Source: Escherichia phage vB_EcoM_G2540
Sequence record: MK327936.1
DNA length: 64,000 nt
Direction: 5' to 3' (one strand)
Shown: positions 2,393 through 64,000 of the stretch, piece by piece
How the letters are laid out: every line of letters starts with the position of its first letter
Position numbering within the stretch: position 1 is the first letter of the stretch
Notes under the pieces: generated by a model
Told to the model about the DNA's origin: nothing
The model's database searches: none
What the model saw: only the letters and a program-made list of their open reading frames with translations
Translations under genes and position numbers: made by a program

Positions 2393-2417
2393 TTCAATAT
2401 CCTCATTTGCCCAATTA

Positions 2418-4267: not shown

Positions 4268-4316
4268 TTATCCTCGTTTGGTTTCGGGAATATTATACTC
4301 CGGTAATCATAAAGCT

Positions 4317-4334
4317 AAAGGCCCGAAGGCCTTT
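4317..4334 (-). terminator. intrinsic terminator hairpin
   Basis: aaaggcc-cgaa-ggccttt stem-loop (UUCG tetraloop on the transcript) immediately 3' of the 4334..4603 ORF. Confidence 0.5.
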
Positions 4335-5150: not shown

Positions 5151-5152
5151 AA

Positions 5153-7569: not shown

Positions 7570-7596
7570 TTTATTATCCTCAGTAGCTATGGTGTT

Positions 7597-7626
7597 ATAA
7601 TACCACAACTAACCGAGGAAGTAAAC
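7597..7626 (-). promoter_or_regulatory. T4-type early promoter
   Basis: plus gtaaac 7621-7626, 18-bp spacer, plus ataata 7597-7602 with GTGG context. Confidence 0.5.
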
Positions 7627-7632
7627 AACTTT

Positions 7633-8316
7633 TTATCGTTTTGTTGTAAGAGATAGAGGATCGCAATCTTCCTCTGACGGAGCATCTTCAAGACCCATAG
7701 CATATCGCAAAGCATACTTCATCATCAGAATATCTTTCGCACAGTCATGAATAGAATCATGCGCAACGAATCCATCTAAAGTTCCTTTTGGAAGAGGACA
7801 CGTGGTCATATCACGAACAAGCAGAAGTGCTTCAATTCTGGTACGAATATCACGCTGATTCCAGAATTTACATGGTTCTAACTTAAATGTGTCAAGCTCA
7901 TTCTCAGAAACACCATTAAGACGTTGAATATCACGAATGAGATCGACTAAAATTGGAAAATCAAACGACATTCCACGGCACCAGCCTTGAGATTTCCAAG
8001 GATCGATATTATGTGCATTGATGTAATCATTAAATTTTGCAATACCATCGATGGTGCTTACATCTTCATCTGATGGTGCAATATTTTTTCGAGCTTCAGG
8101 AGACTGATTTTTCCACCATTCGATAGTGCTTTTAGTAAAAAGACGATGTCCTTTTTGGCTTTTTAAATCAAATTTGATTTTAATGCCGCGTGAAACTAAT
8201 TCATCAAATGTTTCAACTACTTCTGGGTTAGGGTCAAAAGCAATTACAGCTAAATCAATAACAGCTGCTTTTTCACCACTTCCCATTGTTTCAAAATCTA
8301 TAATAAAATCAAACAT
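7633..8316 (-). CDS. dexA: exonuclease A (DEDD 3'-5' exonuclease), 227 aa
   Basis: 227 aa as in T4 DexA; N-terminal acidic exonuclease motif (FDFIIDFETMG); synteny upstream of dda. Confidence 0.75.
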   Translation of the reverse strand: MFDFIIDFETMGSGEKAAVIDLAVIAFDPNPEVVETFDELVSRGIKIKFDLKSQKGHRLFTKSTIEWWKNQSPEARKNIAPSDEDVSTIDGIAKFNDYINAHNIDPWKSQGWCRGMSFDFPILVDLIRDIQRLNGVSENELDTFKLEPCKFWNQRDIRTRIEALLLVRDMTTCPLPKGTLDGFVAHDSIHDCAKDILMMKYALRYAMGLEDAPSEEDCDPLSLTTKR

Positions 8317-22883: not shown

Positions 22884-22999
22884 TATATTTTTCCATAGGC
22901 AGCATTATATTTTACTCATGTTTATAATAAAGGGTATTGTTATACCCAGAGTTTAACTACATCATATTTAATAATGAGATAATTATATCACCTTATCAT

Positions 23000-23113
23000 T
23001 TAGCATTTACTTTTTGATTTCTTACTTTCATAAAGGTCATACAGATACAATCCAGCAAGACTAACTGCGGCAAATATTCCTAAGCCAGTAATGAATAATA
23101 AAGGTCCTAACAT
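23000..23113 (-). CDS. candidate small hydrophobic peptide, 37 aa
   Basis: hand translation MLGPLLFITGLGIFAAVSLAGLYLYDLYESKKSKSKC in the uvsX-bgt intergenic region. Confidence 0.3.
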   Translation of the reverse strand: MLGPLLFITGLGIFAAVSLAGLYLYDLYESKKSKSKC

Positions 23114-23125
23114 ATTAACCTCAAA

Positions 23126-24203
23126 TTAAGCGGTGATATCGAGAACGCGAAGAAGCTCTTCTTGCCATTCTGATTTTAAACTTTGATACTTAAATAGGGT
23201 TTGATGTTGTATTGTAATCAATTCCCGCCTCAAGCACTCATTGGTTTTTAACTCATTTACTAAAGTTTCAAAATCATTTTTATTCTTAACGTAGAATCTA
23301 GGGTCGTCAATAATAAGATGCTCGCTATCAAACTCTTCATCGATAAGCATCACAGCATCTGATGCCATGGCCTCCCAGACTCTAATTGTGATAAAATTAT
23401 CATTGTAATCTTTATCACCAATGACTATAGTTGCTATCGCTTGGCTATTCGTGTCAATAACCAAATTTGATGCTATTTTTTTGACTGAATGATGGAGCTA
23501 CATTCCACGGAAATTTAGGATTTTTAAACTGTTTCTCTTTAATAGTTCCAAACATTTTAATATTTAAATTGGTATCAAAAAGAAATTCAACTATTTTAGA
23601 CTCTCGTTGCCCACCTCTAAACGCGCCGCAGTACACAACGTCATATTTTTTAATAGTTTGATTCGCAGGTTTAAGTTTCTGTGAATGAATAAAATATCTA
23701 TCTACAGGAAAGTAATCATACTCAAATTCTTTACCGTATCTTTCGGTTGTTTTCTTATGAGCCTTTTTAGCAATTTCTAGATTTCTGCCCTGAGATATTA
23801 CTTTAAAGTCAGATGACACAAATAAGTCTTCATCTTTGTATTCACTTGAAAATTTCTTTCTGCGAACTACCGGAAGAACTTGCATAAATCCAAGACGGCC
23901 ATCAGTAAAAATATAATAAATTTTACTTCTATATTCAGCCATCAATTTATATGAATTTAAAACGATTGGATTTTTCTTTCCACCGAAGAAATTGATAGCG
24001 CCATTAATTACTATTAGTCTATCGTATGAATTTATATCAGTTACTACATCAAATGATATAGTGTATTCAGTATTTCGCATTGAAATTATATCAACGGAAT
24101 GCCCTAATTCAGTTAAAGACCTGCCTATTAAAATAGTTTCGGCTGATGATACTATTTTAAAATCACTCACAGTATTACTTAAATTTAGAATAGCTATTTT
24201 CAT
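23126..24203 (-). pseudogene. bgt: beta-glucosyltransferase-like gene split by a frameshift in an A7 run
   Basis: 249-aa N-terminal ORF plus 112-aa C-terminal ORF together resemble recalled T4 beta-gt (~60% identity); frames switch at the T7 run 23476-23482; removing one base restores FSQKIASNLVIDTNSQAIA, colinear with T4. Confidence 0.65.
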
Positions 24204-25057
24204 GATATTTCCGTAACTTCAACTTTGTGAATAGCATTAAACTTATGAAATGCTTCTGATTTTTCTTTACGCGAAACGCACATGCGAAGAACCTTTAATG
24301 GCTCGTCTTCTTCACCCAACGATTTTCGTTTTTCAATATTAGAAGTTTTCCAACGAGCTTGCTCTGGAAACTCTCTATTGATTTGCTCAAGCGCTCTATT
24401 ATGTTTAGAATTACTACGAATTGAACTACACCCGCCAGGAGCTTGTGCTTTTCCAGATACAACTAGATATTTGAACAAGGCCAAATGCGGATAACCTTGA
24501 TTAATTAAATTGAGAAATGCATACATATCTTCGCATAAATCAATTTTTCCATACCCAATTTGTTCTGTCGTAAGTTTTCCGAGGTCATACCATGTATTCG
24601 TGAATCCATATGAATTTTCACGATAATTACCCCAAGATGAAGTAATTTTAAAAATTGGTAGACGAGCATGACCGTGATAATACCCGCAATCCATGGCATC
24701 TTCAACATATTGAATCAATTCATAGAACTGTTCACGAGTCAATTGATTGACTTTATCTACGCAACGCCGATCATCTCTTTTTCGCATTGAACTCATACGA
24801 ATAGTAGTATCATCGTCAATCATCCAGATTCGTTGACCTGCATACATATCAGTAATTGCTTTACGAGTACCAGCAATTCCATTTACATCATCAGGAATAG
24901 TTATAATTTTAGCTCTAGACCCATAGGCATCATAATAAGCTTTTTCTTCGTGTTCACGTACTACAATATGTGGTTCATAATCAGTCGGAAACATATCAAG
25001 GGCAGAAACTGCCCCTACACGTTGATAGCTTGGAATTACGAATTGAATCATTTCCAC
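24200..25057 (-). CDS. putative GT-A-fold glycosyltransferase, 285 aa
   Basis: N-terminal QFVIPSYQR resembles the GT2 VIPTYN motif; DxD-like IWMIDDDTT ~80 aa in; sits between bgt and gene 42. Confidence 0.4.
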   Translation of the reverse strand: MEMIQFVIPSYQRVGAVSALDMFPTDYEPHIVVREHEEKAYYDAYGSRAKIITIPDDVNGIAGTRKAITDMYAGQRIWMIDDDTTIRMSSMRKRDDRRCVDKVNQLTREQFYELIQYVEDAMDCGYYHGHARLPIFKITSSWGNYRENSYGFTNTWYDLGKLTTEQIGYGKIDLCEDMYAFLNLINQGYPHLALFKYLVVSGKAQAPGGCSSIRSNSKHNRALEQINREFPEQARWKTSNIEKRKSLGEEDEPLKVLRMCVSRKEKSEAFHKFNAIHKVEVTEIS

Positions 25058-33114: not shown

Positions 33115-33831
33115 ATGAATTATAAACTAATTTATGAAAAGTTAATCTCTAATGCTAAATCTCGAAAACTTGATTGTTATACTGAATCTCATCACATTAT
33201 ACCACGCTGTTTAAATGGCAGCGATGATGCTTCAAACTTAGTAGATTTAACACCAGAAGAGCACTATGTAGCTCATCAACTTTTAGTAAAAATTTATCCT
33301 TCTGAACCAAAATTAGTCTATGCTGCTAACATGATGACAGTTTCTACGAAATACGCTAAACGCAACAATAAAACTTTCGGTTGGATTCGTCGTAAACTCT
33401 GGGAAATAGAAAAGAATAAAGAATTCTCCCAGGAGACACGAAAGAAAATGTCTGATGCAGTAGCTAATAAAGCAAGACTAACTTGTCCTCATTGCGGTAA
33501 GTCTGGATTAAGCGGGAATATGAATCGTTGGCATTTTGATAACTGCCCAAATCACCCTAATCCTAAAGTTAGACCACCAATGTCTAAAGAACACAGAAAT
33601 AATATCTCAAACGGGCTTAAAGCAATCGTTCTTGAAGAAACATCCTGCGAATTCTGCGGAATGATAGGCAAGAAATGCGTTATCGCAGCGCATAGAAATT
33701 TCTGCAAGAAAAATCCAAATGGACGCAAGAAAACTGAAAAGACTGGTACTTGCGTCCATTGTGGTAAAGTTACCACTTTCGGAAATTTATCAAGATGGCA
33801 TAATGATAACTGTAAATATAAACTTAGCTAA
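33115..33831 (+). mobile_element. free-standing HNH homing endonuclease, 238 aa, with three C-terminal zinc-ribbon repeats
   Basis: HNH motif ESHHIIPRCLNGSDDASNLVDLTPEEHYVAHQ; three Cys-rich repeats (CPHCGK...RWHFDNC, CEFCG...AAHRNFC, CVHCGK...RWHNDNC); opposite strand to neighbours. Confidence 0.8.
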
Positions 33832-51390: not shown

Positions 51391-52293
51391 TTAAAATTTA
51401 AGTAAATCAACGATTTTAATTAATTTTTCACGCTCAGATTTAGCTTTACTACTCAATCCAGATAGTCTGAAAATTTCATCATCATATTGCTGAATAGAAA
51501 TATTTAGCTCTTCAATCTGTTTATTAAAATAATCAATTTGTTCAGAATGTTTTTCGTTACTACGAACTGGTACAGGTTTTGTAGGCAATTTAGTTGAACT
51601 GGATTCATCCGGGCGATAAATTAAAATACAACTTGAACCAATAGGGCATTTTGCACCAGATGAATATTCTAATGTTCCGGCTTCTTTTAAAACTTCAAAA
51701 GCTAAACAGAGATGATGCCCCATATTGACATAATCTGTAGAGTGAGCTCTGATGTAATAATCATCTCCACGAGTACTAAATTTAAAGCATTTAAGGTCTT
51801 CTGTATTATTGGTCTTAAAAATCATTTGTTTATCTAGACCTTTAGCTAATCGAGCGCCTAATGCTAATAATCGTCGTTGATTTTCCCACAAATCCGCAAT
51901 CATTTGGTCAAATGATAATTTCGGCATTAGTCGACCATAAAGGTCATATCCTTTATTATAATTGCGAAGGATTTCACTCGCATTAATACGAGACAACGCT
52001 CCAATTTTATTAAGGGCTTTCATGATGCGATTAGATAAACCCATTCCAGATCCGTTTGTTCGTTGCAAATGTTTATCTAATCCAAACCCAATATCAACTT
52101 TAAATTTATCTAAAATTTCAGCATGAACATCTCTGTCAATAACATTCAAATCCAAAGTTGGGTTAAATCTATGAAAAAATTTATCTGGCTCTCCACGACG
52201 AAGTACAGTCCATTCATTTAATTTTTTATTAACTAAAGATTTAATTACTGCATTGACATTATTAATTACTACTGACATATTTTTCTCACTCAA
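51391..52293 (-). CDS. paralogue family member 4, 300 aa
   Basis: C-terminal coiled coil ...IEELNISIQQYDDEIFRLSGLSSKAKSEREKLIKIVDLLKF; weaker internal similarity. Confidence 0.45.
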   Translation of the reverse strand: MSEKNMSVVINNVNAVIKSLVNKKLNEWTVLRRGEPDKFFHRFNPTLDLNVIDRDVHAEILDKFKVDIGFGLDKHLQRTNGSGMGLSNRIMKALNKIGALSRINASEILRNYNKGYDLYGRLMPKLSFDQMIADLWENQRRLLALGARLAKGLDKQMIFKTNNTEDLKCFKFSTRGDDYYIRAHSTDYVNMGHHLCLAFEVLKEAGTLEYSSGAKCPIGSSCILIYRPDESSSTKLPTKPVPVRSNEKHSEQIDYFNKQIEELNISIQQYDDEIFRLSGLSSKAKSEREKLIKIVDLLKF

Positions 52294-52694
52294 TTTTCAA
52301 TTTTACTAAATACACAGAATATGATGGAAAAGACTATATAAGCACCGCATACAGATTGAACTAATACCATTCCAAAGAACCAAACAATATTATCAAACAA
52401 TGTCTGTTTTACGTCGAAAGGACGTAAACTTACAGTAATATTATCACCTTTTTCTATTGAAGAATACATCTCTGGGGAAATATATTCACTAAATCTATAA
52501 CCGTCTTTGAGTTCATATACAGCAATAAACGATAAACTAGACCCCTTTCCTTGAGTTCCTGTAAAGGTATTAACTACAGTAACATCATAATCTTTATAAT
52601 GCATATAATCATTAATTGCGTAATAACCATATGCAACTACTACACATAAACAACATATCAATAAATTCAATCTTTTAATTATCAACTGTTTCAT
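52290..52694 (-). CDS. membrane protein, 134 aa
   Basis: hydrophobic N- and C-terminal helices; stop overlaps the next start. Confidence 0.45.
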   Translation of the reverse strand: MKQLIIKRLNLLICCLCVVVAYGYYAINDYMHYKDYDVTVVNTFTGTQGKGSSLSFIAVYELKDGYRFSEYISPEMYSSIEKGDNITVSLRPFDVKQTLFDNIVWFFGMVLVQSVCGAYIVFSIIFCVFSKIEN

Positions 52695-52749
52695 AATAAT
52701 CTCAATTAAAAGGGCTTAGAACCATTATACCATCCTTGGTATAAAGCGG

Positions 52750-53277
52750 TTATGCGAGTACCGTCTTTAACCGTTCTTCAAACTTCCGAAGAGTATTCTG
52801 GCGTTCAGCTCTTTGCTTTTTGTAAGTTTCAATACGCTCTGAAATGAGAGTGTATCGTTCATTTACTGATTCTTTCATAAAATCAGGAATTTCACGAGAA
52901 GCTTTAATCTCGTCAAATTTATCAATAACTGCTTGCTCTTCAGCAATTAAGTTATCATACATCAAAATATCTTTCTTGATGAACTCAATATCTTCTTGAG
53001 TTACACGAGATAATTTAGATGCTTTATCCTTTTTGTACTGTTCGTTAGTATCACGAGACCAGTGTAATGTACGATTTTTATTCGTATTCTTGTAAATTTC
53101 TACAATACCAATCTCATCGATAATAACGATCCAATTCCAACGAGATTTGTAAATTTGTCCTCCGTCAACCGTGATTTCACCTCCGATTGAGATGTCATTA
53201 AAGAACTTGCTTTGTGCTTCAGATTTAAATTTACCATCGTTGTAATTTACCAGGTTGAAAATATCTTTAGCGTTCAT
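52750..53277 (-). CDS. hypothetical protein, 175 aa
   Basis: ORF with GGAGG Shine-Dalgarno; helical, charged C-terminus. Confidence 0.45.
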   Translation of the reverse strand: MNAKDIFNLVNYNDGKFKSEAQSKFFNDISIGGEITVDGGQIYKSRWNWIVIIDEIGIVEIYKNTNKNRTLHWSRDTNEQYKKDKASKLSRVTQEDIEFIKKDILMYDNLIAEEQAVIDKFDEIKASREIPDFMKESVNERYTLISERIETYKKQRAERQNTLRKFEERLKTVLA

Positions 53278-53305
53278 TTTGTGTTCCTCCGTAGTTGATA
53301 GTTGT

Positions 53306-53335
53306 ATAGTACCACAGAGGAACAGTCTTGTAAAC
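53306..53335 (-). promoter_or_regulatory. T4-type early promoter (repeated cassette family)
   Basis: plus gtaaac 53330-53335, 18-bp spacer, plus atagta 53306-53311; shares the gtagttgatagttgtatagtacca block. Confidence 0.5.
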
Positions 53336-53337
53336 CA

Positions 53338-53652
53338 CTAAAAGAAACTTCTTTCACAATTTTTTCCACTGAACCATGCGCTTACCGCTTTCTTAGTCTC
53401 AGGAGCAGTGTTATCCATAAACCATTCAAAGGCAGCCTTTTTATGATTCTGGAGGGCTTCTCGGGCTTTAATCTGCTCACGGTCTATTAACACTAACATA
53501 TGAGCCTTTCTTGTCACCATGGGCTTCTTATGATTTTTTGAATACTCCCAGTCATTTGTCCATCGCATTGTCGTTGCGAACTTAAATACTGCTTCTTTAA
53601 TTTTAGTTTCGTAAATTTCACGAGCCTTTGAGTATAACATCATTACCTCCAT
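53338..53652 (-). CDS. hypothetical protein, 104 aa
   Basis: ORF. Confidence 0.4.
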   Translation of the reverse strand: MEVMMLYSKAREIYETKIKEAVFKFATTMRWTNDWEYSKNHKKPMVTRKAHMLVLIDREQIKAREALQNHKKAAFEWFMDNTAPETKKAVSAWFSGKNCERSFF

Positions 53653-53742
53653 TCACCAGTTTAATTCTAGTCATCTTTTTAATGGCAGTCCATATAATCT
53701 ATTTCTGAACTGCCTTTTTGTCATAGAAGTCCTCTTATGAAT

Positions 53743-54711
53743 TTATTTCAGAAGAGTAACCTCAGCGATTTCTTCCCAACCGTTTTTGTCGGTCATAATA
53801 AAGTCAGCAAGATAAAGAGCAGTACGCAGTGAAACATTGCGTAAACGATTAACATTAACTTTCATCCATGATAATGCTTTATAAGTTTCTTCATCAGAAA
53901 GACCGCGCTTTTGCATCATGTCGGTTGAAAGAATAACATCTTCAACCCTGACCATAATTTCTTCATTAGTGTGAACACCCAAATCTAAATAAACTGAGCG
54001 GGACACTAATGCTTGTAAATGTGGAGCAAGTTTAGTACCGCGGTCTAATTCGCGGTCAATGTCAACGTTTGTGATAAAAACAATCGTTCCTTTAAATTCA
54101 AACTCACGGTCAATGCCTTTTTCTTCTAAGTAAGAAGATGCAGTGCTCCAGCAGACTTTACGGGTCTCTCCAGTGTCCAGAGCAGCTTTTAGAAGATTAA
54201 GAATGTCCATATCAGAGAAAACATCCACATCATCAATCAAAAGGACAGAGTTCTCTTCACGATTATACCAAAGCTGCTCATAAAGACCAATACCAGAGAT
54301 TTTACCATTAATGCTTTTATATTCAATGTATCCAATATCGTTTGCTTTATTTAAAGCTTTATCTAAAGAATACGTTTTACCAATACCTGCTGCGCCAGAG
54401 ATAATTAATGAACGAATATTTCCATTAATAATACCATTCGTCATCATTCCCATAACATTAAATCTTTTATTAATGCGGGTTTTCATATCTTCATATGATT
54501 CTTTAACTTCTTCAACTTTTACACCATCATATGAAATATCTGATTTGTAAACCCAAACACCACGACGTTTACCGTCAATTTCAACAAAAACTTTACCATC
54601 TCCTTGTGCATCTACCGGAGCATTATCTGGGAACCATTCGCCTAAGAGCTCAAAAGTTCCAGAGATTTCTTTACCGAAGTAGATACCCTTATTGATAGTT
54701 ACAGTTTTCAT
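53743..54711 (-). CDS. P-loop AAA+-type ATPase, ~322 aa
   Basis: Walker A SGAAGIGKTYSL and Walker B VLLIDDVD; start placed at MKTVTINKG (GGAGAA Shine-Dalgarno). Confidence 0.55.
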   Translation of the reverse strand: MKTVTINKGIYFGKEISGTFELLGEWFPDNAPVDAQGDGKVFVEIDGKRRGVWVYKSDISYDGVKVEEVKESYEDMKTRINKRFNVMGMMTNGIINGNIRSLIISGAAGIGKTYSLDKALNKANDIGYIEYKSINGKISGIGLYEQLWYNREENSVLLIDDVDVFSDMDILNLLKAALDTGETRKVCWSTASSYLEEKGIDREFEFKGTIVFITNVDIDRELDRGTKLAPHLQALVSRSVYLDLGVHTNEEIMVRVEDVILSTDMMQKRGLSDEETYKALSWMKVNVNRLRNVSLRTALYLADFIMTDKNGWEEIAEVTLLK

Positions 54712-54747
54712 TTTATTCTCCAATCTCACATTTGTTTTGATAGGGTA

Positions 54748-54777
54748 ATAGTATCACACTACTACCCTTTTGTAAAC
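54748..54777 (-). promoter_or_regulatory. T4-type early promoter
   Basis: plus gtaaac 54772-54777, 18-bp spacer, plus atagta 54748-54753. Confidence 0.5.
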
Positions 54778-54780
54778 AAT

Positions 54781-55044
54781 TTATTTTAACGTTCGCCAAA
54801 TTTTTACTGCTTCACGGCGAGATACTTCTACAGCTCCAAGTTCTACAGCTTTTTGGCGTCGGCGAGCGTGTAAGTCATAATGTTTAATGCGTTTATCTTG
54901 AAACCAAGAACGTTTCATTCCTATTGCTTCTGCCATTTCATGAAGCTCTTCAATATCTCCATCAGTGAACATATGACAATTTTTAGTTGGATGACCGCGA
55001 AGTTTCCATCCATGATTCATTAAAACATCTACGTAAACTGTCAT
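54781..55044 (-). CDS. hypothetical protein, 87 aa
   Basis: ORF; His/Arg-rich. Confidence 0.4.
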   Translation of the reverse strand: MTVYVDVLMNHGWKLRGHPTKNCHMFTDGDIEELHEMAEAIGMKRSWFQDKRIKHYDLHARRRQKAVELGAVEVSRREAVKIWRTLK

Positions 55045-55190
55045 TGATTCTTCTCCAAATAAGTTTCGATAATTTTCTGAGCGAGATAAACTGCATTATC
55101 TTCAGTTGCATCTTCTAAGAAACTTTCAAAACACTCTGAAATTTCTTCTGTATCAATCAACTTTTTTACTTCAATTGGTGTAATTTTCAT
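55041..55190 (-). CDS. small hypothetical protein (~49 aa from internal Met)
   Basis: ORF 55041..55361 trimmed to MKITPIEVKK because upstream sequence is promoter/terminator. Confidence 0.3.
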   Translation of the reverse strand: MKITPIEVKKLIDTEEISECFESFLEDATEDNAVYLAQKIIETYLEKNQ

Positions 55191-55227
55191 TTTGTTTTTC
55201 CGTTTAAGTGTTTGTTTTGATAGTTGT

Positions 55228-55257
55228 ATAGTACCATAAAGCTTTATGCTTGTAAAC
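55228..55257 (-). promoter_or_regulatory. T4-type early promoter (repeated cassette family)
   Basis: plus gtaaac 55252-55257, 18-bp spacer, plus atagta 55228-55233. Confidence 0.5.
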
Positions 55258-55282
55258 AATTTTGTGAAAAATTTTTGAAATA

Positions 55283-55308
55283 AAAAAAGGGAGCCCGAAG
55301 GCTCCCTA
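55283..55308 (-). terminator. intrinsic terminator
   Basis: agggagc-ccgaa-ggctccct hairpin followed on the transcript by UUUUUUUAUUU; 3' of the 328-aa ORF. Confidence 0.6.
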
Positions 55309-56295
55309 TCATTTATAATAACTTCGGTGGTTTTCAAGATAAACCCTCTCAAGGAAGTCATCCCAAAAACCCATGTCTACTTTTTGCTGCATACCGTTCT
55401 TAGAAGCTTCAGTAGATGCTGCTTCTACTTGATCGACCACATCTTCCAAAAACTCTTGAACCGTTTTAAATGGATGTTTACCCAACTTCACGTCGAGAAT
55501 AAATGGAGCATCTTGGAGTGGATAAACCAAGTCACCAGTTTTGTAAATTTCCAATAGTTGGAGTCCACCACGGCAAGCATGACTCAGAGCTTTCCAGTCA
55601 ATACCTTCATTGGCTTCGGCCTTACGAGCACGTTCACCGTATTCAGCATCTAATTTGTTCAGTGACTGCTTAAGCTCAATAAGAGAAAGCGTTGTCTGAT
55701 ATTTACGACCCAACACTGTGTAGAACGTCTGTGGGCCTGTTTTCTCATGATTATGGAACACCCATTCACAGAATTCGTTTTCTGGAAGACGATGCTTAAT
55801 ATCTTCAACTTTAGTACGACGCTGCTTAATAGAACCATCTTCTTGGTAATCAACCCATTGCTCAGGGATTTGATTAACTACTTTCAATACATCACGTAAT
55901 GCAGCCAAACGAGAACCCTTAACGCCGTATTTAGAAGCTTGCTTACGGACATATCCTAAATAGGATTTCATGTTAGTCGTATAAAAACGAGAACGGTTGT
56001 CTTGAATAAACTTCCACACATCAGGCAAATCAGATTTAACCACTAGTTCAGGTGGAGTGTGAAGCATATCTAACGCTACAGTTTCACCATCTGCTGCTAA
56101 TTTAAAGAAATATTTAAGACTGTATAGTTCATGGTCAATATCATCTTTAGTGTTTTTAGATGATGTGTTGTTAGTGTTTTTACTCATGTGCTCTTTAACA
56201 TTTCCGATAAGAATATCACGAGCAGGAGGAACAAAGATTTCTTTAAAATCTACATCAGATTCTGGGGGTAGAAGTTCCATAAAGATGACTACCAA
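55309..56295 (-). CDS. hypothetical protein, 328 aa
   Basis: large ORF with no motif I can name; directly upstream of the AAA+ ATPase block. Confidence 0.5.
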   Translation of the reverse strand: MVVIFMELLPPESDVDFKEIFVPPARDILIGNVKEHMSKNTNNTSSKNTKDDIDHELYSLKYFFKLAADGETVALDMLHTPPELVVKSDLPDVWKFIQDNRSRFYTTNMKSYLGYVRKQASKYGVKGSRLAALRDVLKVVNQIPEQWVDYQEDGSIKQRRTKVEDIKHRLPENEFCEWVFHNHEKTGPQTFYTVLGRKYQTTLSLIELKQSLNKLDAEYGERARKAEANEGIDWKALSHACRGGLQLLEIYKTGDLVYPLQDAPFILDVKLGKHPFKTVQEFLEDVVDQVEAASTEASKNGMQQKVDMGFWDDFLERVYLENHRSYYK

Positions 56296-56319
56296 AATAG
56301 CTTTTCATTACTGTTTTCA

Positions 56320-56781
56320 TCATTCAGCCTTATATTCAATAACAGGACATACTTTAGCTTTACGAGCTTTTAAAAATTCAACGATAATCGATTTCTTGGG
56401 TTGAATAGGAGGTAAACCTTTATACGCCCTATCAATATTTTCTACGTGTAAAGCATAATCCTTTTTCCATTTATAATCTTTATATTTTTCACGCAGTTGT
56501 GCAGGAATAACAAATGAACCGATAATAAGTAAAACAAGCAAAATGGCAAGTATAAATGCTGATGGAATAAGAGTCCATAAACTACCAAAAATAAGCCATT
56601 TCTGTATGATTTCTGCGCAGATGATAGTTAGACCTACGAGTATAGTACATCCGAAAAAAGAAACGAAAAATGTAGGAATAACAATAGACCAAAAATACGC
56701 GCACAGTGTCTTAGGTCGTTTCCATTCATCATTAAACATTTTGAATAATTTATAATGCCAAGAGTTTTCATTAATAATCAT
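56320..56781 (-). CDS. membrane protein, 153 aa
   Basis: two to three predicted TM helices. Confidence 0.45.
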   Translation of the reverse strand: MIINENSWHYKLFKMFNDEWKRPKTLCAYFWSIVIPTFFVSFFGCTILVGLTIICAEIIQKWLIFGSLWTLIPSAFILAILLVLLIIGSFVIPAQLREKYKDYKWKKDYALHVENIDRAYKGLPPIQPKKSIIVEFLKARKAKVCPVIEYKAE

Positions 56782-56783
56782 AA

Positions 56784-57305
56784 TTATCCTTTCATTGAAG
56801 GTGTAACAGTTGTTAAATACTTAATCATAGCTTCAGCTTCTGATTTTGATAATGAAATTTCTCCATTGTTTTGACGAATAGAAATAAAATCCGGATGACG
56901 GTCACCACCAGCTTTTAAAACACACATATAAGTATCAGTTTCATCTTCAATATTTGAAATGATTGAAGCAGTTCCACATGAATGTGGTTTTTGATAAATC
57001 AATACAGCTTTTCTTCCACCGTTTGACTGTTCATAAACTTTTAACACATCAAACAAATCACTTCTTTTATCAATAGCTAAGATGTTGTTTTCATCTTCAA
57101 TGTTAAATCCTTCGGATACTTCATAAAGCGTTACCCATAAATCACCTATATCGATAGTAGCATTTTCCTTTCCATGACTTTCAAGAGCATGACAAATTTT
57201 CTTGATTTCATCATAACTCATTTTAATAATATCATCTCCTTGAATAAGGAAGATGTCATTTTTAAATTCAACACGAATTAAACCGCTTCCACTTGAAATA
57301 AACAT
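56784..57305 (-). CDS. hypothetical protein, 173 aa (paralogue pair)
   Basis: C-terminus ...SKSEAEAMIKYLTTVTPSMKG resembles that of the adjacent 188-aa ORF. Confidence 0.45.
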   Translation of the reverse strand: MFISSGSGLIRVEFKNDIFLIQGDDIIKMSYDEIKKICHALESHGKENATIDIGDLWVTLYEVSEGFNIEDENNILAIDKRSDLFDVLKVYEQSNGGRKAVLIYQKPHSCGTASIISNIEDETDTYMCVLKAGGDRHPDFISIRQNNGEISLSKSEAEAMIKYLTTVTPSMKG

Positions 57306-57311
57306 ATTTCC

Positions 57312-57878
57312 TCACTTTGAAATCATAGTTGGAATGGCAGAATCAAGATAAGTCTTTAGCGCAATAGCTTCGTCTTTTGTAAATGTAACAATATGTGCTC
57401 GAAAATCGTCAATTTGGCGAATAGTTAAGACATCTCCTTCTTCATAACATTTTGATACATTTAAAACAGTTTCATCATTCTGATCGCACTGATCGCAAGC
57501 GTTAGTAATAATAGCATTGCAATTTTTGAGCCATTTTAAACTATGTTTTCTTTCATTAGAATAATAAAAATATTTAATCTTAGCTATAAAACTATCCCAA
57601 TGGATAACTGATAAACACATTGACTCACTTTTAATATTAAATCCTGGGCATGAAGAATAAAAATGAATTTTGTGCTCATCATTGATGCTTACTATTTTAT
57701 CAGTATAAGGATATTCAATTTGGATTAAATGAACGATTTCACTAGGCGTAAAATATAGCATATCGTCTTCTTGCGTCAAACGATACATGTTATTTACTTT
57801 TTCTATAGCCAATTCACCAAAAAGCGGACTAACTTCTAATACTAATCGTTTCATATTGATTCTCTTCGACTCACTCAC
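57312..57878 (-). CDS. hypothetical protein, 188 aa (paralogue pair)
   Basis: C-terminus ...TKDEAIALKTYLDSAIPTMISK; probable GTG start with AAGGAG Shine-Dalgarno. Confidence 0.45.
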   Translation of the reverse strand: MSESKRINMKRLVLEVSPLFGELAIEKVNNMYRLTQEDDMLYFTPSEIVHLIQIEYPYTDKIVSINDEHKIHFYSSCPGFNIKSESMCLSVIHWDSFIAKIKYFYYSNERKHSLKWLKNCNAIITNACDQCDQNDETVLNVSKCYEEGDVLTIRQIDDFRAHIVTFTKDEAIALKTYLDSAIPTMISK

Positions 57879-58013
57879 AATTACATACTCCTTTGAATAA
57901 TATCAATAATGTTGTTCACCAGATTATAAGTAAACATTGGGTAATTATATTGAATCATCACATACACAACAAACAAAACTTTCATTCTCTTCTCCTTGAC
58001 CGTTGACAAGATT

Positions 58014-58043
58014 ACTATACCATAACCTTGTCAACTTGTAAAC
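58014..58043 (-). promoter_or_regulatory. T4-type early promoter
   Basis: plus gtaaac 58038-58043, 18-bp spacer, plus actata 58014-58019. Confidence 0.45.
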
Positions 58044-58208
58044 CATTAAATGACGTTTTCAATAAAATTCTGAAGCTTTGTGTGAGCATCAACCATAATT
58101 TTCATTTCTTCCTTTGCGAAAGCTGTACCTCTTTCCCGAGCAGAATACTCATAGTCAGAAACTGCATTAGCATATTCTTCAATTAGCTTCATTAAAAACA
58201 TTTGCTTT

Positions 58209-58439
58209 TCAGTTTTCATTATTCCACCTAATCATTTCAAGATATTGAACTAACTTAGCTTTGGATTTATCCAAATCCTTTTTAGCTGCTTCTATACCGT
58301 CGTATGAATATCCTTCACAGTGCTCAACTGCCAATTGATATGAATCTATTTCAATATCACGTGCTAATTTAATGATTTTTTCAAACTGTTCACGTGTTAG
58401 CATACTAAACTCTCGTATTATGATCAATAATTTCATCAA
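58209..58439 (-). CDS. small hypothetical protein, 76 aa
   Basis: ORF. Confidence 0.35.
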   Translation of the reverse strand: MMKLLIIIREFSMLTREQFEKIIKLARDIEIDSYQLAVEHCEGYSYDGIEAAKKDLDKSKAKLVQYLEMIRWNNEN

Positions 58440-58644
58440 GAAACATATCTAACGCTTCTAAAGCATTATCAACTTTAGCTTCAAATTTTTCAATACCTTT
58501 ATTTGCAATGCCTGCCGAAAACCAAGCAAAGTCACTAAGTTCCTCATCTGCTTTGCGAATTAAAGCTACCAATTCTTTAATTTTATCTGCTTGTTCAATT
58601 CTAGTCATTATTCCACCACATATGAAAGAGAGAATATTGCACAC
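58405..58644 (-). CDS. small hypothetical protein, 79 aa
   Basis: ORF. Confidence 0.35.
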
Positions 58645-58796
58645 GCCATATGAGTTGCAGCTTCATCACACATATCATAACGTTTCTTAAGAAGTTCTAC
58701 AAGTTCTTCACTAGTAACTTCATCCATGTCGACGAAAAAATCACCATTAATGATGACGTAGATATTTCCTTCTTGATTGAGTGCTTCAATTTTCAT
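58608..58796 (-). CDS. small hypothetical protein (~62 aa from internal Met)
   Basis: ORF 58608..58841 trimmed to MKIEALNQ (GGAG Shine-Dalgarno) because the upstream part overlaps the promoter. Confidence 0.35.
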
Positions 58797-58824
58797 GATG
58801 TTCTCCTCTTTATCCGATAGTTGT

Positions 58825-58854
58825 ATAGTACCACAGCTCAAACGGAAAGTAAAC
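58825..58854 (-). promoter_or_regulatory. T4-type early promoter (repeated cassette family)
   Basis: plus gtaaac 58849-58854, 18-bp spacer, plus atagta 58825-58830. Confidence 0.5.
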
Positions 58855-58864
58855 CGGCAAAATG

Positions 58865-58888
58865 AAAAAAGTCTCCCGAAGGAGACTA
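58865..58888 (-). terminator. intrinsic terminator
   Basis: agtctc-ccgaa-ggagact hairpin followed on the transcript by UUUUUUC; 3' of the 128-aa ORF. Confidence 0.6.
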
Positions 58889-58891
58889 ATG

Positions 58892-59278
58892 TTATTCGAG
58901 GGAAAGAAGATACTTACTCTGGTAAAACATTCCAGTAATATCATCTATCGTGCTTTGAATGGCTGGAGGCATTTCTTTATAAATGCTGTTAGATTGATCT
59001 AGTATGCGATCAATCATTTTAATTGTGTCGGTAGGAAGTTTACTGGCATCTGGAATTGAAGGCGTGTATTTTCTACCAGAATACCCCAAATATTGCTCAC
59101 CAAATTTATCAATCAAATCTGGCAACTCGGAGAAAATAAAATCGTATGCTTTGTGTCTAGCATAACTTTTAGTTTCAAAATGTGCAGAATGAAAATAAGC
59201 TTGTGCAGCCATTAATAAACCTAAGTATTCATCTGCCTTTGAAGGTTTTCCACTTTGTGAAAAGTCGCTGAATTTCAT
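58892..59278 (-). CDS. hypothetical protein, 128 aa (rI.-1 position)
   Basis: ORF directly downstream of rI. Confidence 0.45.
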
Positions 59279-59568
59279 TCAGTCTCCAATTTAATGTTCA
59301 TAATTCTAGCGTATGATTGTGCCATCTCCGCGCCTCGCTCTATACATTCAAAATCGGAAGAGCACGGGTCATTTTTATAAGTCGTTCGCATAAAACTATA
59401 GAACTGTTCAGATGATTCTACGCTTTTGTTTTCAAAAAGCATATAAACGTGTCTAATACCAGATTCCATAAATTTATCAAAATGAGAATCGACATTCGCT
59501 TCAATTGGTGGAGATAAAGCAAATGCTAATCCTAGCATGGCAAATAGTGCCGTTGCTTTTAAGGCCAT
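59275..59568 (-). CDS. rI: lysis-inhibition regulator RI, 97 aa
   Basis: 97 aa; MALKATALFAMLGL...[69 protein letters not shown] matches recalled T4 RI. Confidence 0.8.
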   Translation of the reverse strand: MALKATALFAMLGLAFALSPPIEANVDSHFDKFMESGIRHVYMLFENKSVESSEQFYSFMRTTYKNDPCSSDFECIERGAEMAQSYARIMNIKLETE

Positions 59569-59580
59569 AAAGGCCTCCTA

Positions 59581-59793
59581 TCATTTTTGTCCTGTATTTA
59601 CTTTATGCCGATGCACGGCCTTAACTTTATCAAGGTATTTTTCAAAATTTCGCAATCTAGTATAGTCTGCCGGAGATTGGTTGAGTGATACTTCTCGACG
59701 CAAAGCTGAAATGATATTTCCAACTTCCCTACGAATTTCATCTAATTGAAGAACAGTAAGATTGCGAAGTTGCTTTTCAGTTAATTGTAGCAT
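59581..59793 (-). CDS. small hypothetical protein, 70 aa (rI.1 position)
   Basis: ORF between the late promoter and rI. Confidence 0.4.
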
Positions 59794-59818
59794 ATATACC
59801 CCTTTAGTTAGATAAACC

Positions 59819-59826
59819 TATTTATA
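59819..59826 (-). promoter_or_regulatory. late promoter (TATAAATA)
   Basis: plus tatttata 59819-59826 is the reverse complement of TATAAATA; lies in the tk-rI.1 intergenic region. Confidence 0.5.
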
Positions 59827-59835
59827 ACTTTTGCA

Positions 59836-60417
59836 CTAACCGAGCTTTTTAGTTAATTCATTCCAATGTTTTCTACACAAAGAAACATAAATTTCATCAC
59901 CAATACAGATTTGATTACCTTCTTTAACTGGTGTTCCATCTTCCATTAATCGAGCTGTTATAATAGCTTTTTTACCACAATGACAAACTGCCTTTAGTTC
60001 AATAAGTTTATCTGCAATCGCCAAAAGTTCTTTAGAACCTTCAAATAATTTTCCAGCGAAATCAGTCCTTAGCCCATAAGCCATAACAGGAACATTATAT
60101 GTATCAACAATTCGACTTAATTGATGCACCTGTTCAGTTTTTAAAAACTGAGCTTCATCTACAAATACACAATGAATATCTTTTTGTGCTTCAGCCCATT
60201 TATAGAACTCAAAAATATCCATATCATCCGTAATAATATTCGCTTCCTGCTTAATTCCAATGCGAGAAACGACTTCACAGACAGAATCGCGAGTATCAAT
60301 AGCAGGCTTAAGAACTAATACACCCATTCCGCGTTCTTTATAATTATGTGCAGCAGTCAAAAGAGAAGCAGATTTTCCAGCATTCATTGCTGCGTAAGTA
60401 AAAATTAAACTCGCCAT
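59836..60417 (-). CDS. tk: thymidine kinase, 193 aa
   Basis: 193 aa as in T4; P-loop (AAMNAGKS) and C-terminal Zn-binding Cys pairs. Confidence 0.8.
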   Translation of the reverse strand: MASLIFTYAAMNAGKSASLLTAAHNYKERGMGVLVLKPAIDTRDSVCEVVSRIGIKQEANIITDDMDIFEFYKWAEAQKDIHCVFVDEAQFLKTEQVHQLSRIVDTYNVPVMAYGLRTDFAGKLFEGSKELLAIADKLIELKAVCHCGKKAIITARLMEDGTPVKEGNQICIGDEIYVSLCRKHWNELTKKLG

Positions 60418-60426
60418 ATCACCTTC

Positions 60427-60612
60427 TTAAAGCATATTCACATAAGCTATTAATTCGTTTTCTTTCTTATCAAACCGATCAGCAAATTCTTCTTGCTGTT
60501 CGGGAGATAGCGGGCCGTATTCATCATAAAAGGTGTTTGCTTCTGTATGCTCATCTAGAAGTTCATGGATAAGCTCAAACAATTTATCTTTTTGTTCTTT
60601 ACTCAGACTCAT
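60427..60612 (-). CDS. small acidic protein, 61 aa
   Basis: ORF immediately downstream... positioned next to tk. Confidence 0.4.
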   Translation of the reverse strand: MSLSKEQKDKLFELIHELLDEHTEANTFYDEYGPLSPEQQEEFADRFDKKENELIAYVNML

Positions 60613-60778
60613 ATATTAATTTCCAGGAGTTTTAAAATAATTCGCTTTTGCTTAAATATTTCCATAGTTAAATGACCAGTATCTTTTTGACCGATTCCAA
60701 TGGCAAAACCTTTATTGACAGCGAGTTCAATTAAATTATCAAGCTCACGTAACACTTCATACTGTAACTCAAAACTAT

Positions 60779-60991
60779 TCATTTCGGTTTACCTTCTTTA
60801 ACGAAATCTGGATAAGGATAAAATCCCGAATAAAATCCTTCACCTTTATGATTGATGCATCCTTTATTAGAACAATAGCACCAATAATCGAAATCACAAG
60901 CCATTTCATCGTTGCATAAAGCAAAAACAACTGGCCATTTACACTTTTCACAATGGGCATTTTTAAGAATACTAGTTTGGCTCATAACCAT
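60779..60991 (-). CDS. small Cys-rich protein, 70 aa
   Basis: ten Cys (CEKCKW...CNDEMACDFDYWCYCSNKGC); preferred over the overlapping alternative frame. Confidence 0.35.
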   Translation of the reverse strand: MVMSQTSILKNAHCEKCKWPVVFALCNDEMACDFDYWCYCSNKGCINHKGEGFYSGFYPYPDFVKEGKPK

Positions 60992-61209
60992 GTAACCTTT
61001 AAGCAGTATTCTTCTACATGCTGTTTACGACCTTTCTTATCAATAAAGGTATATTCAACGAATGTTCCAATGTAGTCTTTATCTACATCATGCGGACTAT
61101 TAATTGGACATTTAGTACGGCAAATGCGTTCCCATTGACGAATAATTACTGCCTTATTCTTTGGGTCATATGGATGTGGATAATGTATATTCATAATAAC
61201 GGTTCCCAA
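60982..61209 (-). CDS. small hypothetical protein, 75 aa
   Basis: ORF. Confidence 0.35.
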   Translation of the reverse strand: MGTVIMNIHYPHPYDPKNKAVIIRQWERICRTKCPINSPHDVDKDYIGTFVEYTFIDKKGRKQHVEEYCLKVTWL

Positions 61210-61658
61210 TCAACAATCACAATTTCTAATTTAGAGGAATATGTATCTAAAATCCCCTCAATAATATCCCAGTTCCCTTTACCTATGCCTGCACCAATCC
61301 TAGGCATATAGATTGTAGGTTTAATCAGTTTATTTTCACCAAACTCATTTAATTCTAACATACAATTCATTAAAGCGGAATACTCAAAATTTGGCCCTGG
61401 TTGAAATTGAGTATAAAGGTTGAAGCAATACGCTTTATGAGTCCTAAAATATTTTTCATAGACTGAGTAAGAACCGAGTTTAGTTACATCACCCCATTCA
61501 GTCTGTAATTTATCAGCTTCCAAAATTTTAGGGAAAGCTTTGGTTAATTGACCCGCTACGCCTGAACCCATAGTATGAAAACAATTGCATCCATGCGCAA
61601 TATTTTTACCTTCAGCGAAAAGGGCGACAATATCGCCCTTGATATATTTTACAATCAT
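61191..61658 (-). CDS. macro-domain protein (candidate ADP-ribose binding/hydrolase), 155 aa
   Basis: macro-domain-like motifs: IAHGCNCFHTMGSGVAGQL (cf. NAAN...GGGV loop) and PRIGAGIGKGNW (cf. PAISTGIYG). Confidence 0.5.
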   Translation of the reverse strand: MIVKYIKGDIVALFAEGKNIAHGCNCFHTMGSGVAGQLTKAFPKILEADKLQTEWGDVTKLGSYSVYEKYFRTHKAYCFNLYTQFQPGPNFEYSALMNCMLELNEFGENKLIKPTIYMPRIGAGIGKGNWDIIEGILDTYSSKLEIVIVDWEPLL

Positions 61659-61996
61659 CTAGTACTCAATCCTCGATTATAAGAATCTACCAAACGGTCA
61701 ACCATTGAATGACAAGCGGCTTTATCTTTCTCCTCCGCAACTGAACATTCTAAGGTATTCCACTTTTTAGCATATCGTTTTAACAATGTATCATTTTTAT
61801 ATCTGCTTGATTTATCTCTTTCTCCGTCTTTATATGCATATATTAATTTCTGCGCAAATTCAGCTTGGCATGCTTTATTTTTCCCGCAATAATCCGCGGC
61901 AGTACGGTTTACATACTCTCTAATTTCAGTATATGATGTATCTGCTAACGCAGAAAATGAAATTAATCCTATACATAAAACCAAAATTTTAGTCAT
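61655..61996 (-). CDS. secreted protein, 113 aa
   Basis: signal peptide MTKILVLCIGLISFSALA; several Cys. Confidence 0.45.
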   Translation of the reverse strand: MTKILVLCIGLISFSALADTSYTEIREYVNRTAADYCGKNKACQAEFAQKLIYAYKDGERDKSSRYKNDTLLKRYAKKWNTLECSVAEEKDKAACHSMVDRLVDSYNRGLSTR

Positions 61997-62534
61997 TTAC
62001 TATTTCCAAAAGTTTATTATTTTTAAGGTAATTAGCCTTTTCTAGGACTTCAGAAGCATATTTAGAACCTGCTTTAACATTCCATCCCGAATTATAAGAG
62101 GATATTGCTTTTCTTATATCGCCCTTATGTATATTTAACCAATAAGAAAGTTCAATGTACGCCCAGGAAGCTGAATTGGACCGTTTATTCAACATTCTTT
62201 TTATTTCTGCATCGGTCATATTATAACCAAGTTCCTTAACTCTTGCTCGCATAGTAGGCAAATAATTTTGGAACATTCCGTAGGCGTGATGCTTTGGTTT
62301 AGATTTTAAATTAACTCCGCCAGAGCTTTCTTGCCATAAAATAGCAGCCATTATATGACCTAATCCGCTCTTATGGATATTTTTGTGTGTTTTATATTTT
62401 CCATCCTTAGAAAATTGTTCCCCGAATTGATACGCGTAACGCATGTTATCGAGTTGGACATTACTGAAAGTATGCTCGGAGCTATGTGCCATCATTGAAA
62501 TGGCCAATAGACCAGCGAGTAGTGCTTTTCTCAT
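61989..62534 (-). CDS. periplasmic lytic transglycosylase (SLT domain), 181 aa
   Basis: signal peptide MRKALLAGLLAISMMAHS; catalytic-Glu motif AAILWQESSGG and downstream YN.G-type motif. Confidence 0.55.
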   Translation of the reverse strand: MRKALLAGLLAISMMAHSSEHTFSNVQLDNMRYAYQFGEQFSKDGKYKTHKNIHKSGLGHIMAAILWQESSGGVNLKSKPKHHAYGMFQNYLPTMRARVKELGYNMTDAEIKRMLNKRSNSASWAYIELSYWLNIHKGDIRKAISSYNSGWNVKAGSKYASEVLEKANYLKNNKLLEIVND

Positions 62535-62541
62535 GCTTACC

Positions 62542-63003
62542 TCATTGAGTTTTAATTACTGCTTTAGAAGCCTTTCCTGGTAAACGACGACTGTTGATAA
62601 TTGCCATCCTGCATTGAAGTGACGGGTTTTTGAACTTCTCATTAGGCTTACAAACCGTAAATCCAAGCCAAAGATTTCCATCTGTGATTTCTAAACGTCC
62701 AGGACGATATTCAACCCCATCAATAAAATCCTCGTCAATGTCAGGACGCGGAGGCATACTCAGGAATTCATTAACTTCTAAAACATGGTCTTTTATTTTA
62801 TGGAATAATTCAAAAACATATGTCTCATCAATCTCCCGTTGAATTGCACGATCAAGAAGATGCTGAGAATATTTTAGATGAAACGATGAGACTCCTGCTG
62901 CTTTTGATGCCTCACGAATCTCATTGTTAATTTGACGAAACTCCGACTCAAAGTGACGACGAAGCTTATTTCGACGGATAAAAACTTCTGTATTGATAGT
63001 CAT
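62542..63003 (-). CDS. regB: endoribonuclease RegB, 153 aa
   Basis: 153 aa as in T4; position between the vs block and denV. Confidence 0.75.
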   Translation of the reverse strand: MTINTEVFIRRNKLRRHFESEFRQINNEIREASKAAGVSSFHLKYSQHLLDRAIQREIDETYVFELFHKIKDHVLEVNEFLSMPPRPDIDEDFIDGVEYRPGRLEITDGNLWLGFTVCKPNEKFKNPSLQCRMAIINSRRLPGKASKAVIKTQ

Positions 63004-63030
63004 GTTATTCTCCTCTTAACTGATAGAAAA

Positions 63031-63060
63031 ATTATACCACAGTCAAGAGGAAAAGTAAAC
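63031..63060 (-). promoter_or_regulatory. T4-type early promoter
   Basis: plus gtaaac 63055-63060, 18-bp spacer, plus attata 63031-63036; upstream of regB. Confidence 0.5.
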
Positions 63061-63062
63061 AG

Positions 63063-63650
63063 TTATTCTTTAAATCTAATCAATTTATTCATAGACTTTG
63101 AAACTTCTGCACGAACCTCATGTAAGTTTTTAAGCTGTTCAAGACGCTGCTCATAGTAAGCAATTTCATCTTCTTCGAGACAGTCCTGTGAATCTTCTTT
63201 AAGATAACGTGCATAGTCCTGAAAAGCTTTACGGACTACTTCCTGGAAGTCATCAAGACTTTGAATTTTCTTAGGAGCGGCAGATACACGACGAGGTGCA
63301 GTATAATACTCATAACCAAACCCTGCACTTAATTGAGCCATTAGTATTTTTCCTCTGGTTGGAATATCGCTGATGTCAGGAACTTCAGTATCTTTTATAC
63401 TAAACCCACGTTTTAAGCATTCCGTTATAATGTCTGATTGACGCTTTCGCAAAAATTCTAACTTATCGTAAAAGAACGTAACATGACCAGAGCCTAAAAT
63501 AAACTCGGAAGATATTTTAAAATCTTTAACCCGCTTACCATTTGCCACATGTTTACGAACTATACCAAAAACACGCGGCAATTCACGATACTCAGCCATA
63601 AGATGTTGGTCGGTCAGTTCAGAAACAAGTGTTAAATTGATACGAGTCAT
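63063..63650 (-). CDS. denV: endonuclease V (pyrimidine-dimer DNA glycosylase) homologue with divergent, extended C-terminus, ~195 aa
   Basis: first ~100 aa match recalled T4 DenV ([12 protein letters not shown]...[10 protein letters not shown]); T4 is 138 aa; start placed at MTRINL after a GGAGGA Shine-Dalgarno. Confidence 0.7.
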
Positions 63651-63677
63651 AATTTCCTCCAAGTAGTTGATGAATGT

Positions 63678-63707
63678 ATAGTATCAAAGTCCTTGGAGGA
63701 AGTAAAC
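63678..63707 (-). promoter_or_regulatory. T4-type early promoter
   Basis: plus gtaaac 63702-63707, 18-bp spacer, plus atagta 63678-63683; upstream of denV. Confidence 0.45.
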
Positions 63708-63708
63708 A

Positions 63709-63990
63709 CTATTTTTCTGAAGCGCCTGAAATATATTTTTCAAGACGTTGTTTCATTAGCGAGCCGTTCTTAGCGATTTCTTCTGGTTTATCGCACATAC
63801 GCAACAAGGCTTCAAGCTTAACGATATCGCTGGTACGTTCAAATTTGCGAGTATCTATCTTACTAGCAAGTTCAGAAATACGTGCTAATAGACTTTCAGC
63901 TTCAACCAAAGCTGCACCTAGCTTAGTTGCAAATGTGTCAGTAGCTTCGTTAAGAATAGATTCTGATAAAAATTCACTATATGTTTTCAT
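63709..63990 (-). CDS. internal protein (IPII-like) with capsid-targeting N-terminus, 93 aa
   Basis: N-terminus MKTYSEFLSE resembles the T4 internal-protein capsid-targeting sequence (MKTYQEFIAE); position next to denV. Confidence 0.55.
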   Translation of the reverse strand: MKTYSEFLSESILNEATDTFATKLGAALVEAESLLARISELASKIDTRKFERTSDIVKLEALLRMCDKPEEIAKNGSLMKQRLEKYISGASEK

Positions 63991-64000
63991 ATATACGCTT

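Follow-up and report, generated by a model that had tools for sequence, protein, structure and literature searches.

Results

Make-Up of the denV-Like Reading Frame

The denV-like gene of Escherichia phage vB_EcoM_G2540 (G2540 below) raises the question of how its reading frame came to encode 195 aa, as compared with the 138 aa of T4 DenV, a length that had been given in the first-pass annotation of this DNA and that we could confirm. Three origins had been proposed there for the extra residues: a downstream gene fused to denV, a domain particular to this lineage, or a frame error. G2540 is a plaque-purified, T4-like isolate with a relatively broad host range (Korf et al. 2019, PMC6563267). 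The stretch of its DNA that was analyzed (the window) comprises 64,000 nt of the sequence record MK327936.1, and positions given below without the name of another phage refer to it.

The ORF occupies positions 63063–63650 of the minus strand and consists of 195 codons, starting with the ATG at 63650 and followed by a TAA stop codon at 63063–63065. The ATG is preceded by a GGAGG Shine–Dalgarno sequence. The TTG at 63662, indicated as the start codon in a mechanical ORF list, falls within this Shine–Dalgarno sequence, and was rejected. The encoded protein, with a predicted mass of 22.9 kDa, exceeds T4 DenV by 57 aa, and comprises residues 1–97 of DenV, a linker, TRGKIL, and residues 1–92 of Vs.3 (TadIV-1). 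An exact look-up of the 195-aa sequence retrieved QBO63362.1, from the 168,886-bp record of phage vB_EcoM_G2540, named “putative pyrimidine dimer DNA glycosylase” in GenBank. In a large protein collection, QBO63362.1 is a member of the 92-aa Vs.3 protein cluster (40 of the 91 members were inspected). An NCBIfam search with the fusion protein and with Vs.4 gave no match.

The first part of the ORF (63360–63650, minus strand) corresponds to codons 1–97 of denV. As had been noticed earlier, the first ~100 residues, including the N-terminal Thr, are close to those of T4 DenV: 84 of 97 are identical (87%) in a gapless alignment, and the similarity ends at P97 of DISDIP, just where the divergence had been placed. 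The PDB entry 2END was matched by residues 1–99 (E = 1e-51), the Pfam family Pyr_excise (PF03013) by residues 1–86 (50.8 bits versus a cut-off of 23), and PHROG 1183 with an E-value of 1.7e-48, the match covering only positions 1–101 of the 139 in this profile. Over its first 286 nt, denV does not differ from denV of phages ECO78, Kha5h, Kelasse, and NR1 (100% identity). The α-amine of the N-terminal Thr of DenV makes the imine intermediate, and a neighbouring Glu acts as the catalytic acid/base (PMC3285167). The DenV half of the fusion retains Thr2, Arg3, Arg22, Glu23, and Arg26, as well as the predicted helices H1 and H2; T2, R3, E23, and R26, which lie in the segment MTRINL...EYRELPR, were invariant in 20 aligned sequences.

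The ORF does not encode the complete DenV fold of ~138 aa, as it lacks helix 3, to which R117 and K121 belong, and the aromatic W-Y-K-Y/F segment. The absent residues include nine whose conservation across 19 diverse homologues of DenV is 90% or more, namely Y104, P106, S114, R117, E120, K121, P126, W128, and Y129 (T4 numbering). In the structures 2END and 1VAS, the missing helix 3 packs on H1 and H2 and contacts the DNA backbone, and the aromatic segment is the one implicated in dimer binding. Since nine nearly invariant residues are lost together with these two elements, DenV(1–97) is most likely inactive, and G2540, with residues 98–138 gone, should behave as a denV-minus, UV-sensitive phage.

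A different truncation of DenV (P0127, 122 aa) was observed in seven contigs of T4-like phages, which came from several independent metagenome assemblies. One A is lost there from an A-run near codon 119 and the WYKYY end is gone, while vs.8 to vs.3 are otherwise intact (loci 4001–4369).

The remaining part of the ORF is a complete vs.3 (tadIV-1) gene (63063–63341, minus strand), with an ATG at 63339–63341, 92 codons, and a stop codon. At the nucleotide level (276 nt), it is 100% identical to vs.3 of phages AR1, RB14, and G10400, and the last 92 residues of the fusion are exactly those of translated AR1 Vs.3. The identity to T4 Vs.3 is 97% over all 92 of 92 residues, and that to the sequence of 9WIW is 75% (PDB phmmer, E = 2.3e-38); PHROG 2037 also matched this half. 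The first-pass annotation had described a short YEYY element followed by ~70 extra residues with a charged, helical end. Both the element and the tail are present, but the tail turned out to consist of TRGKIL and the whole 92-aa Vs.3, so that 98 residues follow DISDIP, and YEYY represents residues 10–13 of Vs.3. It occurs in every stand-alone Vs.3, and its likeness to the WYKYY of DenV, of which it had been taken to be the counterpart, is coincidental.

In 2026, Vs.3 was recognized as TadIV-1, an inhibitor of type IV Thoeris that acts as a dimeric sponge for N7-cADPR, and whose ligand pocket is built by a flexible N-terminal loop (PMC13243611). The loss of residues 2–18 of UPEC07 TadIV-1 is tolerated and the loss of residues 2–32 is not, and R17, R18, and K24 are residues that matter in T4 TadIV-1 (PMC13243611). 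All three are kept in the Vs.3 half of the fusion, which, with its N-terminal loop modelled as disordered, has the characters of the long form of TadIV-1.

In the AF2 model of the fusion protein, confident DenV helices (14–36 and 61–80) are followed by a disordered segment (107–129, pLDDT < 50) and by an antiparallel two-helix hairpin (132–153 and 160–194), suggesting that the fusion would consist of two modules on a flexible tether. An additional helix at 99–111 (pLDDT of ~33–50) is not to be trusted, since the alignment forced the C-termini of DenV onto Vs.3. A Foldseek search of PDB folds with this model returned the structures of T4 endonuclease V alone; 9WIW was not returned.

The Junction and the Missing Segment

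To locate the junction, we compared the window base by base with ECO78 for the denV side and with AR1 for the vs.4/vs.3 side. The two sides meet in a 5-nt microhomology, TTCCA (63360–63364, minus strand). In undeleted relatives, TTCCA occurs once in denV (codons I96–P97), and again near the 3′ end of vs.4, and the same comparison revealed that it lies in a longer imperfect match, TTCCAGCAGAATGGAAAAAT versus TTCCAACCAGA-GGAAAAAT. The junction is followed by 18 nt from the 3′ end of vs.4 (acb2; 63342–63359, minus strand). This remnant gives the linker TRGKIL in the frame of vs.3, and its sequence is also present upstream of vs.3 in AR1, ECO78, G9062, and T4. With TTCCA included, the last 23 nt of vs.4 are left. 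The Shine–Dalgarno sequence of vs.3, GAGG, lies inside the remnant (63352–63355), 10 nt before the vs.3 ATG. RNA structure prediction at the junction gave nothing beyond shuffled controls (z = 0.55).

The two break points are separated by 1,967 bp in G9062 and by 2,458 bp in ECO78 and ECO07P4, which are collinear relatives of G2540; in T4 (AF158101.6), the equivalent interval is at ~63.10–65.06 kb. Missing from G2540 are denV codons 98–138, vs.8, vs.7, vs.6 (glycyl-radical GrcA-like), vs.5, and vs.4 except for its last 23 nt, and, as compared to ECO78-type genomes, also the gene of a 157-aa DUF7412 virion/internal-head protein that follows denV. None of the missing genes was found elsewhere within the 64-kb window of the ~169-kb genome, and tblastn with ECO78 DenV detected no coding sequence for the C-terminus of DenV in any frame of the window. 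Likewise, acb2 is absent from its conserved place between vs.5 and vs.3, and tblastn with ECO78 Vs.4, itself a match to the Pfam family Acb2_Tad1_hairpin (PF24729; 9e-20), found none within the window. The absence of vs.4 is unusual, since the gene is carried by 1,029 phage records and is commoner than denV (721 records) or vs.3 (606 records).

In relatives, a 138-aa DenV and a separate vs.3 are thus 1,967–2,458 bp apart. In the first-pass annotation, related genomes with such a DenV and a separate small ORF, set off by a stop codon missing here, had been named as what would speak against its reading; in spirit, this is what the relatives show, but the cause appears to be a deletion and not the loss of a stop codon. 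Of its three proposals, the fusion with a downstream gene holds, but the gene joined to denV is not its immediate neighbour: vs.3 lies six or seven genes downstream and would have been brought to denV by a multi-gene deletion.

Searches for the junction in other sequences were negative. With the 721-nt region around it, megablast matched 655 of 50,697 phage records, a collection evidently without G2540 itself, but the halves were matched at different places: the first half to the 3′ end of the internal head protein gene and denV (98.9%), and the second half to a segment that runs from the end of vs.4 through vs.3 into the start of regB (100%). None of the 50,697 records spanned both halves of the region, or a 131-nt junction probe. 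Neither in IMG/VR nor in JGI metagenomes or GTDB genomes was there an exact match to a 34-mer or a 22-mer pattern of the junction. Judging by these searches, the joint appears to be unique to G2540 among all the sequences searched. As to denV itself, it is not universal in Tequatrovirus, since there is no denV between e/Ip4 and vs.8 in AR1 (locus 2093–3848), and RB14 matched just the vs.3 arm of the query.

Neighbouring Genes and Other Features of the Window

On both sides of the chimeric ORF the gene order is normal. The regB gene (62542–63003, minus strand; Pfam REGB_T4, 6e-69) is the usual downstream neighbour of vs.3, in the same order as in T4, AR1, and G9062. A 93-aa internal head protein gene (63709–63990, minus strand; PHROG 3499, 1e-46) is the usual upstream neighbour of denV in ECO78-type phages, and its product does not differ from that of ECO78 (100% identity). 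A promoter-like site (63031–63059, minus strand) lies in the 59 nt that separate the stop codon of the fusion ORF from regB. It consists of TTTACT, a 17-nt spacer, and TG-TATAAT, and is a strong sigma-70-like match, but by consensus only (10 of 12 positions). A promoter scan directly upstream of denV found no consensus site.

Two other loci of the window deserve mention. On the minus strand at 23126–24203, a beta-glucosyltransferase-like gene appears to be split into two ORFs, one of 249 aa and another, starting with TTG, of 112 aa, and may represent a frameshift or a pseudogene; T4 bgt encodes a single protein of 351 aa. Nothing corresponding to the whole block 22924–24228 is present in G9062, a close relative. 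Also absent from G9062 is a 238-aa ORF of an HNH-type (Mob-like) homing endonuclease (33115–33831, plus strand), which lies on the opposite strand beside a gene 46-like ORF.

Discussion

Origin of the Chimeric Gene

We consider it very probable that the chimeric gene was made by one microhomology-mediated illegitimate deletion in this Tequatrovirus. In an ancestor with the gene order ip–denV–(ip)–vs.8–vs.7–vs.6–vs.5–vs.4–vs.3–regB, recombination between TTCCA at denV codons 96–97 and TTCCA located 23 nt before the start of vs.3 would have removed 1,967–2,458 bp. By chance, the joint leaves the denV frame open through the 18-nt remnant of vs.4 and into the ATG of vs.3, in the vs.3 frame. Such an in-frame chimera would be expected from one in three deletions in a dispensable region, and the fusion would have no designed function. 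The identity of both halves to intact genes (100%), with neither decay nor co-adaptation, suggests that the event was recent. Short-homology junctions are a classic signature of real T4 deletions and a textbook feature of the dispensable regions of T-even phages.

A different source of the joint would be the assembly or the sample: two co-cultured T4-like phages, one ECO78-like and one G9062-like, could have been joined, or a minority deletion variant reported, while the real denV–vs.4 segment is intact. We regard this as improbable. The joint is present in one record only, so that the deletion is known from a single published contig, and the joint coincides exactly with a change of the nearest relative, the arm of denV (63346–64000) being 99.4% ECO78-like and 88% G9062-like, and the vs.3 arm (51500–63364) 99.5% G9062-like and 90% ECO78-like; a chimera of two phages would look no different. 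However, the nearest relative changes often throughout the window, in which the identity to G9062 varies by block from 94.5% to 99.6%, and both arm types, together with the intervening genes, occur in one natural genome, as in ECO07P4 (98.9% and 98.1% for the two arms) and DCP2 (97.5% and 98.8%). The match of ECO07P4 to both arms indicates that the undeleted parental arrangement exists in nature. The typicality of short-homology junctions among genuine T4 deletions also speaks against an artefact, as does the length of the shared sequence: only 5 bases are identical at the joint, and a k-mer assembler (k = 55) cannot bridge a 5-nt overlap. The published assemblies were made with SPAdes (k = 55) or PacBio HGAP as single contigs from purified phages (PMC6563267). 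The mosaic boundary was probably located within the deleted segment; alternatively, the arms could derive from two parents.

The fusion might also be a functional, selected variant of DenV, in which the helical hairpin of Vs.3 replaces helix 3 and the C-terminus as a lineage-specific architecture. The intact Thr2, Arg3, Arg22, Glu23, and Arg26, the open frame, and the low-confidence AF2 helix at 99–111 would be in line with it, but that helix has a low pLDDT and comes from a forced alignment, the segment between the modules is predicted to be disordered, and the nine nearly invariant DenV residues are missing. Moreover, the architecture occurs in one genome only, as compared with 721 phage records with denV, and the identity of the halves to stand-alone genes argues against any co-adaptation between them. 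We find such a variant highly improbable, and the related proposal of a lineage-specific domain fails, since both halves are identical in nucleotide sequence to separate, intact genes and their junction is unique to G2540. A sequencing frameshift or a lost stop within an otherwise normal denV has practically no likelihood. Other T4-like contigs do have frameshifts in homopolymers of denV, as in P0127, but no frame of the window encodes DenV past residue ~101, and what follows the joint is vs.3, with 100% identity to that of AR1. With no 3′ sequence of denV surviving in any frame, the frame error proposed earlier had to be abandoned. Taken together, these results argue that the fusion arose as a by-product of deletion and is not a new DenV or glycosylase architecture. 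As the complete DenV fold is missing, the ORF would best be regarded as a denV pseudogene fragment, joined to a Vs.3 that has the sequence characters of TadIV-1.

The deletion may be neutral, or, given headful packaging, it may offset additional DNA in other parts of the genome. The latter is possible since the window is ~1.35 kb longer than G9062 over the first 52 kb. According to an adaptive scenario, Acb2 was shed because Panoptes-type defences punish its carriers, the break point had to leave tadIV-1 untouched, and the fusion is a functional anti-Thoeris sponge expressed from denV signals. We think this unlikely; if true, it would be a natural case of a phage trading away one anti-defence gene and keeping its neighbour.

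Probable Consequences for Anti-Defence Functions

The Vs.4 protein of T4 is Acb2, which sequesters cGAMP and blunts CBASS (PMC10097602). The loss of acb2 allows T4 to escape Panoptes, and raises the CBASS protection against T4 from ~10-fold to ~10,000-fold (PMC12657218). Since Acb2 is absent from its locus, G2540 should be sensitive to CBASS and invisible to sponge-sensing systems such as Panoptes. As for TadIV-1, its native GAGG and ATG are intact and 10 nt apart, so that a free, 10.9-kDa form can probably still be made from them, in addition to the form contained in the fusion, and anti-type-IV-Thoeris activity is probably kept. The fused TadIV-1 may work as well, since the extension is attached to its dispensable, flexible end.

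In ECO78 (locus 7572–8116) and T4 (locus 1001–1545), acb2/vs.4 and tadIV-1/vs.3, two sponge genes that have been validated by experiment and that act against different signalling defences, are located back to back, with the overlapping stop and start codons TAATG. With acb2 and tadIV-1 adjacent, the denV–regB region emerges as an anti-defence islet that undergoes natural gene loss, and vs.5, vs.7, and vs.8 are candidates for further anti-defence genes. G2540 represents a natural strain without acb2 at the usual locus, probably without DenV activity, and with tadIV-1 kept, ready-made for studies of sensitivity to CBASS, Panoptes, and type IV Thoeris outside T4. The mechanism is ordinary, and its anti-defence consequences are mildly interesting.

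The chimera also has consequences for annotation. The plain, 92-aa vs.3 genes of phages JLBYU22 and JLBYU24 (JLBYU24 locus 5024–5302) are named “putative pyrimidine dimer DNA glycosylase”, a label evidently copied from the G2540 fusion protein, so that the chimera seeds annotation errors for tadIV-1. In other records, and in the PDB entry 9WIW, Vs.3 is named “endoribonuclease”, probably because it was confused with regB next to it. Neither name is correct for tadIV-1.

Comparison with Known Systems

The fusion protein shares the N-terminal Thr and the catalytic Glu with T4 endonuclease V (PF03013; 2END, 1VAS, 2FCC), and the gene has the native Shine–Dalgarno sequence, the ATG, and the upstream neighbour of the usual denV unchanged. 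In contrast to the fusion, T4 endonuclease V has residues 98–138, with R117 and K121 of helix 3 and the segment W128-Y129-K-Y-Y. The second half shares with TadIV-1 (T4 Vs.3; 9WIW) the full length of the long group, R17, R18, and K24, and the position of the gene directly upstream of regB. The predicted fold is also shared, a disordered N-terminal loop being followed by a two-helix hairpin, as in the description of the crystal structure (PMC13243611). Unlike stand-alone TadIV-1, it is preceded by 103 extra in-frame residues in the fusion, and the usual upstream gene, vs.4, whose stop codon overlaps the ATG of vs.3, is gone in G2540.

The deletion itself can be compared with those obtained in T4. 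In T4 whose genome was reduced with CiPGr, the vs.3–denV block is one of the large fragments that viable phages can lack (PMC9825161), and the tolerance of G2540 for its loss is in line with this, as well as with the natural absence of denV from AR1 and the truncated DenV P0127. G2540 shares with these T4 derivatives, and with the acb2 mutants able to escape Panoptes (PMC12657218), a lesion in this dispensable block, the loss of acb2, and viability. However, G2540 is an environmental isolate, whereas the CiPGr derivatives of T4 and the acb2 mutants were engineered or selected. Moreover, unlike in those T4 mutants, the deletion in G2540 ends precisely before vs.3, which leaves tadIV-1 in place behind an in-frame chimeric junction with denV.
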